Shown here in pieces: positions 652 to 4,247 of a stretch of DNA of 4,247 nt. Source of the stretch: a virus. Taxonomy: Duplodnaviria > Heunggongvirae > Uroviricota > Caudoviricetes. The first letter of the stretch is position 1, and each line of letters starts with the position of its first letter. The DNA lies in IMG/VR virus record IMGVR_UViG_2675903481_000017. One strand, written 5' to 3'. Under the pieces are notes generated by a model, which saw nothing but the letters and a program-made list of their open reading frames with translations, did not search any database and was not told the DNA's origin. Position numbers and translations under genes: made by a program.

Positions 652-1328
652 CACCGGACATTATCCTGCAGCGTACCGGGATCGACGTGAGAGCTGTCGA
701 ACAGGGGGATGATGCATGGCACAAATTACGGCTCGGCGTCATCACCGCTTCAGAAGTTCACAACGTGATAGCAAAGCCCCGCTCAGGAAAGAAGTGGCCT
801 GACATGAAAATGTCCTACTTCCACACCCTGCTGGCTGAGGTTTGCACCGGTGTGGCTCCGGAAGTTAATGCTAAGGCGCTGGCGTGGGGAAAACAGTACG
901 AGAACGACGCCAGAACCCTGTTTGAATTCACTTCCGGCGTGAATGTTACTGAATCCCCGATCATCTATCGCGACGAAAGTATGCGCACCGCCTGCTCTCC
1001 CGATGGTTTATGCAGTGACGGCAATGGCCTTGAGCTGAAATGCCCGTTTACCTCCCGGGATTTCATGAAGTTCCGGCTCGGTGGTTTCGAGGCCATAAAG
1101 TCGGCTTACATGGCCCAGGTGCAGTACAGCATGTGGGTGACACGAAAAGATGCCTGGTACTTTGCCAACTATGACCCACGAATGAAGCGTGAAGGCCTGC
1201 ATTATGTCGTGGTTGAGCGGGATGAAAAGTACATGGCGAGTTTTGACGAGATGGTGCCGGAGTTCATCGAAAAAATGGACGAAGCACTGGCTGAAATTGG
1301 TTTTGTATTTGGAGAGCAATGGCGATGA
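648..1328 (+). CDS. exo: Lambda-type 5'-3' exonuclease (Red-alpha, Exo), 226 aa
   Basis: The 226-aa translation [50 protein letters not shown]...[11 protein letters not shown] matches lambda Exo as I recall it, with a few substitutions. An AAGGTGG Shine-Dalgarno at 637-643 sits 4 nt before the ATG. Start is coupled to the bet stop (ATGA at 648-651). Confidence 0.92.
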
Positions 1329-1507
1329 CCCATCCTCACGATAATATCCGGGTAGGCGCGATCACTTTCGTCTACTCCGTTACAAAGCGAGGCTGGGTAT
1401 TTCACGGTCTTTCTGTTATCCGAAATCCGCTGAAAGCCCAGCGGCTGGCTGAGGAGATAAATAATAAACGGGGGGCGGTATGCACAAAGCATCTCCTGTT
1501 GAGTTAA
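1325..1507 (+). CDS. orf60a: Small early-left protein, 60 aa, lambda orf60a-like (function unknown)
   Basis: ATG at 1325 overlaps the exo TGA (ATGA at 1325-1328). Length of 60 codons and position directly after exo match lambda orf60a. The ORF track extends it 2 codons upstream (1319); the coupled ATG at 1325 is preferred. The name rests on recollection of the lambda map, not on a search. Confidence 0.65.
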
Positions 1508-1671
1508 GAACGAGTATTGATTTGGCACATAGCCTTGCTCAAATTGGAGTCAGGTTTGTGCCAATACCAGCAGAAACAGACGAAGAATTTCATACGTTAG
1601 CCACATCCCTTTCACAAAAGCTGGAAATGATGGTGGCGAAAGCAGAAGCAGATGAGAGAGACCAGGTATGA
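1480..1671 (+). CDS. orf63: Small early-left protein, 63 aa, lambda orf63-like (function unknown)
   Basis: 63 codons, with a 28-nt overlap onto the preceding ORF, as in the lambda orf60a/orf63 arrangement. A G-rich stretch (1471-1478) precedes the ATG at 1480. Acidic C-terminus (AEADERDQV). Confidence 0.65.
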   Translation: MHKASPVELRTSIDLAHSLAQIGVRFVPIPAETDEEFHTLATSLSQKLEMMVAKAEADERDQV

Positions 1672-1751
1672 CAACCACTGAATGCATTTTTCTGGCAGCG
1701 GGCTTCATATTCTGTGTGCTTATGCTTGCCGACATGGGGCTTGTTCAGTGA
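1668..1751 (+). CDS. Candidate 27-aa hydrophobic micro-protein (MTTTECIFLAAGFIFCVLMLADMGLVQ), possible single-pass membrane peptide
   Basis: Its ATG overlaps the orf63 stop (ATGA at 1668-1671), the same coupling geometry used at the bet/exo and exo/orf60a junctions. An uninterrupted hydrophobic core of about 20 residues. Below the ORF-track length cut-off. Competes with the 1682-1864 frame. Confidence 0.25.
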   Translation: MTTTECIFLAAGFIFCVLMLADMGLVQ

Positions 1752-1864
1752 CACCTCAGCAAGAAAACGCCCTTCGCAGCATTGCCCGTCAGGCTAATTC
1801 TGAAATCAAAAAAGTCAGACAGCAGTTTCCAAAAACGTCAATGACATTTGCCGTAGCGTACTGA
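1682..1864 (+). CDS. Small hypothetical protein, 60 aa (in the position where lambda carries orf61; identity uncertain)
   Basis: Open frame of 60 codons. The same frame is also open upstream from an ATG at 1652 but is interrupted by TGA at 1679-1681, immediately followed by this ATG. No convincing Shine-Dalgarno. It overlaps the alternative 27-aa frame at 1668-1751, so only one of the two is likely real. Confidence 0.4.
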   Translation: MHFSGSGLHILCAYACRHGACSVTPQQENALRSIARQANSEIKKVRQQFPKTSMTFAVAY

Positions 1865-1979
1865 AGAAGCACCGCGAAACGGTAACGCTGAAGGGATTCA
1901 CACCGACTCATTTAAGCCTGGCAATCGGCATGTTAAACGGCGTCTTTAAGGAACGATGAACATGAAAAGCAAAATTATC

Positions 1980-2002
1980 AGGGAGCTACAGGCTCCTTTT
2001 TT
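1980..2002 (+). terminator. Candidate rho-independent terminator (short GC stem plus T6 tract), + strand
   Basis: GGAGC (1982-1986) and GCTCC (1992-1996) form a 5-bp stem around a 5-nt loop, extendable by A-U/G-U pairs, followed by TTTTTT (1997-2002). Orientation fits pL-direction transcription. The stem is short, so the strength is modest. Confidence 0.3.
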
Positions 2003-2074
2003 ATTGTTCGCATTCACCCTCAAGCGTATTAACCAACAGTTCAGGGATTAATGAAAGATGGCAGACATCATTGA

Positions 2075-2084
2075 NNNNNNNNNN
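2075..2084. other. Run of 10 N (unresolved or masked bases)
   Basis: Literal nnnnnnnnnn in the sequence. The true length and content are unknown, so ORF calls crossing it are unreliable. Confidence 0.99.
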
Positions 2085-2189
2085 CGATCCGATAGATGAA
2101 CGAAGACGCCTGGCCGTTCAGGGTTGTCGGACTTGCGCCAGTTGCCAGCAAGATCTGGAGCTTATCCGCAAACAAAGGGGGATTAAGTG

Positions 2190-2516
2190 ATGGCTAACCT
2201 GCAACTTGCTGTTAAAAGTGAATACTTCGATGCCATGATTCGCGGAGAGAAAACGGAAGAGTATCGCTTGTGTAATGACTACTGGAATAAGCGAATTATG
2301 TTCCGGGAATATGACCGCCTGATTATCACAAAGGGATATCCGAAGCGCGACGATTCCAGTCGCAGAATTGATGTTCCGTATGACGGATATGAAGTGAAGA
2401 CAATCACACATCCGCACTTTGGCGATAAACCGGTAAAGGTGTTCGCTATAAAGGTGAATATCAGCACTGAATATCAATCCGCACAACACAAGGTCAAGAA
2501 TGTTCAGAGTGATTGA
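2190..2516 (+). CDS. ASCH-domain (PUA-like fold) protein, 108 aa; predicted nucleic-acid or modified-nucleoside binding or processing
   Basis: AAGGGGG Shine-Dalgarno at 2175-2181, 8 nt before the ATG at 2190 (the track's GTG at 2187 is less likely). The translation contains GEKTEEYR, a perfect match to the ASCH signature GxKxxExR, near the N-terminus. Size of about 110 aa is typical of stand-alone ASCH proteins. Confidence 0.7.
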   Translation: MANLQLAVKSEYFDAMIRGEKTEEYRLCNDYWNKRIMFREYDRLIITKGYPKRDDSSRRIDVPYDGYEVKTITHPHFGDKPVKVFAIKVNISTEYQSAQHKVKNVQSD

Positions 2517-2739
2517 CCCTAACACCTGGTACGTCGACCACCACGGCACTCCCTGCAAAATCCTGCGTTCTACCCACAACAAAGTTCACTACATCCGAAA
2601 AGGCAGAACATGTATCGCCAGCATGTTCCGCTTTAATCATGACTTTGAACCTGTGAATAAAGCTGATGCAGATCGGATAGCAGAAGAGATCGAAACGGCA
2701 GAACACATTAAGAAGTTACGTGACATGCGCAGGAAATAG
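2500..2739 (+). CDS. Hypothetical protein, 79 aa, translationally coupled to the ASCH gene; function unknown
   Basis: ATG at 2500 with AAGG at 2490-2493, 6 nt upstream. It overlaps the 3' end of the ASCH gene by 17 nt. The C-terminal third is basic and charged (EEIETAEHIKKLRDMRRK). I recognise no named family. Confidence 0.55.
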   Translation: MFRVIDPNTWYVDHHGTPCKILRSTHNKVHYIRKGRTCIASMFRFNHDFEPVNKADADRIAEEIETAEHIKKLRDMRRK

Positions 2740-2878
2740 AAAAATTGATAAATTCAATACTGCATTTCTCAGCATTAAATTTATCTCTATGACCAGTCAA
2801 GAGATGTACCTGCCATGAGCTTAATATCATGTCAGATATATCGGTCACAAACTCCCTCAGCAGCTAAGAGGAGGACAA
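2740..2878 (+). promoter_or_regulatory. AT-rich intergenic leader upstream of xis with a strong ribosome-binding site; possible promoter or regulatory region
   Basis: This is the longest non-coding gap in the window (139 bp, clearly AT-rich). A TTGATA -35-like hexamer sits at 2745-2750 but has no well-spaced -10 partner. AAGAGGAGG (2866-2874) lies 4 nt before the xis ATG. No consensus sigma70 promoter could be confirmed. Confidence 0.25.
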
Positions 2879-3115
2879 ATGTCTCGACTAATCACTTTAC
2901 AGGACTGGGCTAAAGAAGAATTTGGGGACTTAGCACCAAGTGAGCGAGTTCTGAAAAAATACGCGCAAGGGAAAATGATGGCCCCACCCGCTATAAAAGT
3001 TGGTCGCTACTGGATGATTGACCGAAATTCCCGTTTTGTAGGAACGCTTGCAGAACCGCAACTCCCAATAAACGCAAACCCAAAACTCCAAAGGATAATC
3101 GCTGATGGCTGCTAG
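2879..3115 (+). CDS. xis: Excisionase (lambda Xis-like), 78 aa
   Basis: Sits immediately upstream of int and overlaps it by 11 nt. The N-terminal ITLQDWAKEE and PPAIKVGRYWMI motifs align to lambda Xis YLTLQEWNAR and PPPVKDGREYLF, but the protein is clearly not lambda Xis itself. Strong Shine-Dalgarno. Confidence 0.8.
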   Translation: MSRLITLQDWAKEEFGDLAPSERVLKKYAQGKMMAPPAIKVGRYWMIDRNSRFVGTLAEPQLPINANPKLQRIIADGC

Positions 3116-4247
3116 ACCCCGATCTCACAAAATCTCTATACCCAATTTATATTGCAAATTAGATAAGCGAACCGGAAAGGTATATTGGCAATACAAACAT
3201 CCACTATCCGGTCGTTTTCATAGCTTAGGAACTGATGAGAATGAAGCAAAACAAGTTGCTACTGAAGCAAATACCATTATTGCTGAACAACGTACCAGAC
3301 AAATATTAAGCGTCAATGAGCGTCTGGAAAGAATGAAAGGCAGGCGCTCAGACATTACGGTGACAGAATGGCTTGATAAATATATTTCTATCCAAGAGGA
3401 CAGGCTGCAACATAATGAACTAAGACCCAACTCCTATCGGCAAAAAGGCAAACCCATTCGTCTTTTCCGTGAGCATTGTGGAATGCAACACCTCAAGGAT
3501 ATTACCGCACTTGATATTGCCGAAATAATTGATGCTGTAAAGGCTGAAGGTCATAACAGGATGGCGCAAGTCGTGAGAATGGTGTTGATCGACGTCTTCA
3601 AAGAAGCACAACACGCAGGACATGTTCCGCCAGGATTTAACCCAGCGCAGGCAACAAAACAACCGCGAAATCGAGTAAACCGCCAAAGATTGTCACTGCC
3701 CGAATGGCAGGCAATATTTGACAGCGTAAGCAGACGGCAGCCCTATTTAAAATGCGGCATGCTACTTGCTCTTGTTACTGGACAACGTTTAGGCGATATC
3801 TGCAATTTGAAATTCTCTGATATATGGGACGACATGTTGCACATTACTCAGGAAAAAACCGGTTCAAAACTTGCTATTCCGCTTAACCTGAAATGCGATG
3901 CTCTGAATATTACCCTTCGTGAAGTTATATCTCAGTGCAGGGATGCTGTTGTTAGTAAATATCTGGTCCATTACCGTCACACTACCTCTCAAGCAAACAG
4001 AGGAGACCAGGTTTCTGCGAATACTCTGACAACGGCTTTTAAAAAGGCCCGGGAAAAATGTGGCATAAAATGGGAGCAAGGAACTGCGCCCACATTTCAT
4101 GAGCAGCGATCTCTGTCAGAACGGTTATATCGGGAACAGGGTCTGGATACGCAAAAGTTGTTAGGCCATAAATCCAGAAAAATGACCGACCGATACAATG
4201 ATGATCGTGGTAAAGACTGGATTATCGTAGATATCAAAACAGCATAG
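3105..4247 (+). CDS. int: Site-specific tyrosine integrase, lambda Int family, 380 aa
   Basis: The N-terminus (RSHKISIPNLY...) aligns to the lambda Int arm-binding N-terminus (RRSHERRDLPPNLY). Conserved catalytic signatures are present: TGQRLGD (Arg), HEQRSLSERLY (His-x-x-Arg), LLGHKS (His), and the nucleophile Tyr in DRYNDDRG (codon TAC at 4194-4196). AT-rich with rare codons, typical of int genes. The TAG stop is the last triplet of the window. Confidence 0.93.
   Translation: MAARPRSHKISIPNLYCKLDKRTGKVYWQYKHPLSGRFHSLGTDENEAKQVATEANTIIAEQRTRQILSVNERLERMKGRRSDITVTEWLDKYISIQEDRLQHNELRPNSYRQKGKPIRLFREHCGMQHLKDITALDIAEIIDAVKAEGHNRMAQVVRMVLIDVFKEAQHAGHVPPGFNPAQATKQPRNRVNRQRLSLPEWQAIFDSVSRRQPYLKCGMLLALVTGQRLGDICNLKFSDIWDDMLHITQEKTGSKLAIPLNLKCDALNITLREVISQCRDAVVSKYLVHYRHTTSQANRGDQVSANTLTTAFKKAREKCGIKWEQGTAPTFHEQRSLSERLYREQGLDTQKLLGHKSRKMTDRYNDDRGKDWIIVDIKTA

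Follow-up and report, generated by a model that had tools for sequence, protein, structure and literature searches.

The ASCH and DUF4222 genes in the exo-xis region

The DNA analysed here (4,247 nucleotides; below, the window) is a viral sequence of the Caudoviricetes (IMG/VR record IMGVR_UViG_2675903481_000017), and this report concerns two small adjacent genes within it, encoding an ASCH/PUA-like protein and a DUF4222 protein. Positions 1900-2900 were 100% identical to Escherichia phage ev207 (NC_049949, Jouyvirus) and 97.5% identical to phage 21 in megablast comparisons; the window is ev207 DNA, this phage being related to phage 21. The plus strand, which corresponds to the direction of the pL early-left transcript, carries, in order, bet (partial), exo, orf60a (DUF1317), orf63 (DUF1382), an orf61-like gene, orf73 (TraR-like), the ASCH gene, the DUF4222 gene, xis and int. 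RefSeq already names the two products "ASCH domain-containing protein" and "DUF4222 domain-containing protein", and the same gene names are used for ev207 and phage 21. The coordinates of the features are collected in Table 1.

Table 1. Coordinates of the two genes, of elements within them and of the flanking features in the window.
Feature	Coordinates	Strand	Details
ASCH/PUA-like gene	2190..2516	+	108 residues: 94-residue conserved core and 14-residue extension; RefSeq YP_009909672
ASCH octapeptide codons (GKER type)	2244..2267	+	G19-E-K21-T-E-E24-Y-R26
Read-through tail of ASCH (Y95-D108 and stop), lineage-specific	2472..2516	+	DNA alignment of ev207, phage 21, ev017 and 4A7; translations of homologues
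DUF4222 (RgdR-family) gene	2500..2739	+	79 residues, pI 9.56; RefSeq YP_009909671
orf73-like TraR/DksA C4 zinc-finger gene	2059..2190	+	Pfam zf-dskA_traR, 26.7 bits; PHROG 54; 73 residues in the intact phage
Spacer before xis	2740..2878	.	139 nucleotides, AT-rich; imperfect 16-pair hairpin at 2747-2785 (pattern scan)
xis, excisionase	2879..3115	+	Pfam Exc, 26.5 bits; PHROG 629
int, tyrosine integrase of the lambda family (phage 21 type, icd attachment)	3105..4247	+	Pfam Arm-DNA-bind_1 and Phage_integrase; phage 21/ev207 annotation

Both open reading frames (ORFs) were found where an earlier note, made from the sequence alone, had placed them, with an overlap of 17 nucleotides (ATGTTCAGAGTGATTGA), and sequence comparisons identify both as genuine coding genes. 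A GTG at 2187 was listed as an alternative start for the ASCH gene besides the ATG at 2190; homologues have a GTG start where the window has this ATG, and position 2190 is favoured because the GTG starts of the homologues align with it. The ASCH gene matched PHROG 625 (E 2e-51) and the DUF4222 gene PHROG 285 (E 6e-37), and a large protein collection contained 654 homologues of the ASCH protein and 86 of the 79-residue protein. Substitutions between ASCH homologues pile up at third codon positions (22/12/47 across the three positions in the comparison with a Jerseyvirus copy, for example).

The ASCH gene also faces a 154-codon ORF on the minus strand (2118-2582), which is antisense to its whole length and open in the homologues too, and related phages can grow lytically without the exo-xis region (PMC10789677). 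One or both of the sense ORFs could be filler, decaying or without function, in a mosaic region, with the antisense ORF specifying the real product, but this is extremely unlikely. TTA, CTA and TCA codons are all absent from the ASCH gene, and this suffices to leave a codon-aligned antisense frame open; the substitutions lie mostly at sense third positions; and the proteins of the sense frames match PHROG and Pfam strongly, with motifs conserved across genera, including those of the virulent Jerseyviruses and the Ralstonia phages. The antisense ORF was rejected as a gene and is considered a compositional artefact, for which codon composition suffices.

Independent occurrence of the two genes and origin of the overlap

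The earlier note had described the two genes as a cassette encoding a functional pair. Their distribution was surveyed by tblastn in 50,697 phage records, with a 321-nucleotide probe for the junction (coverage ≥80%). ASCH was detected in 332 records, from Salmonella P22-like phages, virulent Jerseyviruses, Shiga toxin (Stx) phages, HK022 and Klebsiella, Ralstonia and Erwinia phages, and DUF4222 in 116, but the junction was recovered in only eight (ev207, PhiR63_2, phage 21, ev017 and PhiR57_1, with some double entries). Among 5,426 complete Escherichia coli genomes, 1,462 (27%) contained ASCH, 2,324 (43%) contained DUF4222 and 690 contained the junction. Close relatives of the window phage carry one gene alone. 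The same orf73 is present in phage 4A7 together with a near-identical DUF4222-xis-int block, a 47-nucleotide spacer taking the place of ASCH; a Klebsiella phage, of whose recombination genes only int is annotated, has a TraR-like gene, DUF4222 and then int, with no ASCH; and in BP-4795 and phi24B, also devoid of ASCH, DUF4222 lies immediately before xis. Conversely, ASCH occurs without DUF4222 in VT2-Sakai/933W (L0064), the P22-like phage MG40, a Jerseyvirus and a Citrobacter prophage, and in a set of prophages a 97%-identical ASCH gene is found immediately upstream of the small terminase gene, away from xis and again without DUF4222. The co-occurrence and kept arrangement across relatives that would characterise a dedicated two-gene module were not observed. 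The genes assort independently in phages and in E. coli, and we conclude that ASCH and DUF4222 are two separate accessory genes, not a dedicated module.

The overlap between the two genes, the second of which the earlier note had called coupled, proved to be a derived feature. Codon 95 of the ASCH frame is TAT in ev207, versus a TAA stop in ev017, VT2-Sakai, HK022 and MG40, in which the frame ends after residue 94. The ASCH stop of ev017 lies 25 nucleotides before the DUF4222 ATG, and there is no overlap, whereas the ev207 frame continues through 14 further codons and stops at a TGA within DUF4222; phage 21 has a change in this TGA too, and its ASCH ORF is longer still. The overlap arose by a lineage-specific loss of the ancestral ASCH stop (TAA to TAT). 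Most ASCH homologues have 93-96 residues, and in the structure model of the window protein, which is otherwise confident, the predicted local distance difference test (pLDDT) values are lower in the tail (79, then 60). The loss of the stop codon, the short homologues and the low confidence of the tail together indicate that the overlap is a recent accident, rather than a conserved coupling device.

The two proteins might nonetheless form one translationally coupled module, acting together on modified nucleic acid, possibly in counter-defence. The 17-nucleotide overlap, co-transcription from pL and the adjacency of the pair in 690 E. coli genomes and eight phage records would fit such a module, as would the presence of anti-restriction genes in the lambdoid early-left operon, ral being one that the ev207 and phage 21 annotations place upstream. 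We consider it very unlikely, in that each gene is far commoner without the other, near-identical DUF4222 genes directly follow orf73 with no ASCH gene between them, ASCH copies with 88-89% protein identity have unrelated genes downstream, and conservation does not extend to the overlap, ev017 having a stop codon and 25 nucleotides between the two genes. For the counter-defence role put forward in the earlier note, nothing supportive was found: neither protein matched PADLOC-DB at E ≤1, in which the models cover defence rather than anti-defence, and no link between ASCH and anti-defence was found in the literature searched. The 690 E. coli genomes in which both genes are adjacent do count against a complete separation, as co-expression is common though not obligatory. 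The two separate accessory genes would, in our interpretation, have become neighbours by mosaic recombination and not through joint work.

Each gene has a more regular setting of its own. ASCH is more regularly accompanied by an EaA-type gene (DUF550/DUF551) upstream of it, and DUF4222 regularly occupies the last or near-last place in the pL operon, before xis/int. In other phages, the gene after ASCH encodes a small Cys-rich protein, of 112 residues (2775-3113 in loci L013-L020), of 92 residues (2775-3053 in L021) or of 103 residues (L0063 of 933W, 2845-3156 in L005). These proteins are unrelated to one another, and searches with hidden Markov models (HMMs) and BLASTP ruled them out as hidden remote relatives of DUF4222.

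Families and proposed functions of the two proteins

The GxKxxExR signature that the earlier note had reported for the ASCH protein is present, and the octapeptide lies near the N-terminus, in agreement with the family pattern GxKxx[E/T/S]xR. In an alignment of 50 homologues (36-76% identity), K21 was invariant and G19, E24 and R26 were conserved in at least 90% of the sequences; the other residues conserved in the family are W32, R35, G49-Y50-P51, H74 and F77. The predicted model has a PUA-like beta-barrel fold resembling solved ASCH structures, with modest structural scores, and a Foldseek search of the Protein Data Bank (PDB) with this model gave nothing at E ≤0.001, though the top matches were ASCH proteins.

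Several results weigh against the assignment to this superfamily. The match to Pfam ASCH (PF04266, PUA clan) reached 14.3 bits, below the gathering threshold of 21.2, and covered residues 6-28 only, and only five of the 50 family members scored E ≤0.01 on this model. A profile of the 50 homologues retrieved no ASCH chain from the PDB, the only match being a chance one to a ribosomal protein (E 0.1), and the hhalign comparison with E. coli YqfB was non-significant (probability 0.5%, E 0.12), with a single aligned stretch (residues 10-26 of each protein). Within this weak alignment, the motif was in register with G19, K21, T24 and R26 of YqfB. Searches of PDB sequences with phmmer yielded no match for the ASCH protein or for the 79-residue protein, and neither protein matched NCBIfam. 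Ten longer proteins with an ASCH-like domain (198-478 residues) had no Pfam domain at E ≤0.001, making these fusions functionally uninformative. The ASCH nature proposed in the earlier note is thus supported by the fold, the conserved GxKxxExR motif and the name given by RefSeq and its Prokaryotic Genome Annotation Pipeline (PGAP), but not by the Pfam score, which falls short of the threshold, and the scores from structure comparison are modest. Judged by its sequence and its predicted structure, the 108-residue protein belongs to the ASCH/PUA-like superfamily as a divergent, stand-alone member with a GKER-type motif.

Like YqfB and the GKER-type ASCH proteins or domains (TthASCH, 2DP9; EOLA1; the TRIP4 ASCH domain; ZmASCH), the window protein is stand-alone, has about 100 residues and is predicted to adopt a PUA-like beta-barrel, with the N-terminal GxKxxExR motif and its Lys and Glu conserved. 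It differs from them in lacking a significant sequence match, in its modest structural similarity, in having GYP and HxHF motifs of its own and in being phage-borne. Its direct homologues (50-100% identity, with the same 93-96-residue core) are the PHROG 625 and NCBI ASCH proteins of lambdoid, P22-like and Jersey-like phages, Stx phage 933W (L0064), HK022 and Ralstonia phages. These relatives mostly have the gene in an early accessory region, and it often begins where an EaA (DUF550/DUF551) gene has its stop, whereas the window copy follows orf73 rather than EaA and has a 14-residue read-through tail overlapping the next gene.

A function for the ASCH protein is suggested by a recent survey in which 19 of 19 ASCH proteins tested, of bacterial, archaeal and human origin and including GKER-type members, lowered N4-acetylcytidine (ac4C) in tRNA (bioRxiv 10.64898/2026.02.27.708502). 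The octapeptide Lys and Glu were essential in TthASCH, EOLA1 and TRIP4, and even ZmASCH reduced tRNA ac4C (bioRxiv 10.64898/2026.02.27.708502). In E. coli, ac4C is found mainly at position 34 of elongator tRNA-Met. The conservation of the Lys-Glu catalytic pair suggests that the phage ASCH protein most likely binds RNA; by analogy with other ASCH proteins, it may hydrolyse the N4-acyl group on cytidine, and its natural target in E. coli would then be ac4C34 of elongator tRNA-Met or the free nucleoside. Our best guess is an RNA-directed N4-acylcytidine amidohydrolase or an RNA-binding protein made early in infection. Action on a modified nucleoside or RNA, as proposed in the earlier note, is a reasonable reading by analogy and is strengthened by the preprint. 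The arguments to the contrary are that this study is a preprint, without peer review, that the ASCH proteins assayed are non-phage members with only distant similarity to the window protein, and that the E. coli host already has its own YqfB.

Alternatively, the ASCH protein could read or bind RNA or modified bases, or could be a single-strand RNA nuclease of the ZmASCH type acting early in infection on the stability of host RNA, rather than an amidohydrolase. Its structural neighbours include the readers EVE, YTH, SRA and McrB-N as well as the ribonuclease ZmASCH, some databases name its homologues "RNA-binding protein", and the conserved residues outside the octapeptide are undescribed for YqfB. 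The best-conserved residues of the family are nevertheless the Lys and Glu essential for deacetylation in GKER-type ASCH proteins, and ZmASCH itself lowered tRNA ac4C, which makes this alternative unlikely, although it has to be taken seriously.

The 79-residue protein is basic, as the earlier note had stated, but its description there as belonging to no family was wrong. It matched Pfam DUF4222 (PF13973) with 68.5 bits, against a gathering threshold of 27, over residues 4-53 and the whole of the 53-position model, and belongs to the RgdR family. The only studied DUF4222 member is RgdR (ECs1581), a basic protein of 99 residues from the cryptic prophage CP-933C/Sp7 of O157:H7 (PMC3378721), for which the sequence taken from the Sakai genome scored 82 bits on the same model. 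RgdR activates LEE1 (LEE, locus of enterocyte effacement) and type III secretion, represses motility and has pleiotropic transcriptional effects, the regulation of LEE1 and motility being documented for RgdR and close variants of it; it binds DNA weakly and non-specifically and has been proposed to be a cofactor of other regulators (PMC3378721). The two proteins have in common the DUF4222 family, a small size, basicity, a prophage origin and a conserved core with a variable C-terminal part after it. They differ in length (99 versus 79 residues) and in location, RgdR being encoded by a P4-like element, beside a primase, and the window protein by a lambdoid pL operon, beside xis; most hosts of the window copy, furthermore, lack LEE.

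The DUF4222 protein is predicted to be small and basic, with an SH3/Tudor-like barrel and a helix at the C-terminus; it is related to RgdR, and its structural matches include the RNA polymerase (RNAP)-interacting domains of UvrD/PcrA, CarD and Mfd. The protein most likely acts as a small cofactor altering host or phage transcription, and it is, by analogy, probably an RgdR-like transcription cofactor. This proposal is weakened by the low identity to RgdR (24% over 68 residues, E 7e-6) together with the lack of the RGD motif (residues 20-22 of RgdR), which modulates the activation of type III secretion, the aligned residues in the window protein being P-N-T, and also by the fact that SH3-like barrels yield many weak structural matches, such that the fold says little about partners. 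The literature on the phi24B DUF4222 gene (vb_24B_1c) provided no gene-specific data, only deletions of the whole region. In the P22-like phage MG40, the eac gene (2856-3485 in locus L007) sits just before xis, and its product, Eac, gave a weak BLASTP match to the phi24B DUF4222 protein (28% over 83 residues, E ~1e-4, in a nine-sequence database) and no match in Pfam; from this sequence similarity, Eac may be a remote relative of DUF4222.

Operon context and significance

The two genes lie on the pL strand between exo and xis, with orf60a, orf63, orf61 and orf73, as indicated by Pfam (DUF1317, DUF1382, zf-dskA_traR) and by the annotation of ev207 and phage 21. In lambda, orf60a, orf63, orf61, orf73 and ea22 make up a conserved block, with variable genes after it, and Orf73 is TraR-like (PMC8614690). 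The placement of the two genes at the ea22/ea8.5 position of lambda in the earlier note is correct, given this gene order; more precisely, they lie in the pL early-left operon between the Red genes with the conserved exo-xis ORFs, on one side, and xis-int on the other. The window shares the operon and the position of the exo-xis genes of lambda (orf60a, orf63, orf61, orf73, ea22, ea8.5 and orf55), which are small non-essential early genes tuning the lysis-lysogeny decision and host physiology. It retains orf60a, orf63, an orf61-like gene and orf73 but lacks ea22 and ea8.5, the slot being filled by the unrelated ASCH and DUF4222 genes. Deleting the entire exo-xis region from related phages affects lysogenisation and the expression of host genes and leaves lytic growth unaltered (PMC10789677). 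The G+C content falls from 51-52% in bet/exo (4-1328) to 43-46% across ASCH, DUF4222, xis and int (2190-4247), a drop that fits a mosaic origin from separate modules.

The true upstream neighbour of ASCH is the orf73-like gene, the stop of which overlaps the ASCH ATG by one nucleotide. This gene looks truncated in the window, in which a run of 10 N bases (2075-2084) replaces 99 bases; the full gene was recovered from NC_049949. The spacer between DUF4222 and xis had an RNA fold z-score of -2.3, and at least its first ~20 nucleotides (through 2760) are kept in 4A7, ev017 and phage 21. Rfam matched nothing in the window, this spacer included, and matches to promoter and terminator patterns in 1300-3200 were no commoner than in shuffled sequence. 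A GC hairpin resembling a terminator, followed by TTTTATTGTT, lies at 1980-1998 (+), within a small ORF (1956-2051) that is itself upstream of orf73; this hairpin could be a terminator of the pL operon that is read through under N antitermination. A 27-codon ORF at 1668-1751 (+), the ATG of which overlaps the stop of the orf63-like gene, would encode a very hydrophobic peptide (MTTTECIFLAAGFIFCVLMLADMGLVQ); it is unannotated in ev207, and phage 21 has a "putative membrane protein" (orf61-like) nearby. The 60-residue orf61-like ORF (1682-1864, +) had a sub-threshold match to Pfam ZapA (18.5 bits versus 23.8), and the gene calls around it differ between ev207 and phage 21.

The whole of these observations is best explained, in our opinion and with moderate confidence, by two separate, already named and common pL accessory genes of a phage-21-like lambdoid phage, with the putative functions discussed above. 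Both families are already annotated in RefSeq and are very common in enterobacterial phages and prophages, and in this respect the finding is ordinary and already known. What is gained is the connection of the 79-residue protein to RgdR, the recognition of the overlap as a mutational accident and a specific hypothesis, ac4C removal, for phage ASCH proteins. A bolder and doubtful proposal, in two parts, is that the phage ASCH family (PHROG 625, from temperate and virulent enterobacterial phages) is a phage-encoded eraser of host tRNA ac4C34, acting on elongator tRNA-Met early in infection and changing decoding, and that the DUF4222/RgdR proteins are Tudor-like RNAP-binding cofactors resembling the domains of UvrD/PcrA, CarD and Mfd. 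If the second part were true, the exo-xis region, with the TraR-like orf73 next door, would be a cluster of RNAP modulators, and ac4C removal, if confirmed, would be the first function for a very widespread family of phage accessory proteins.
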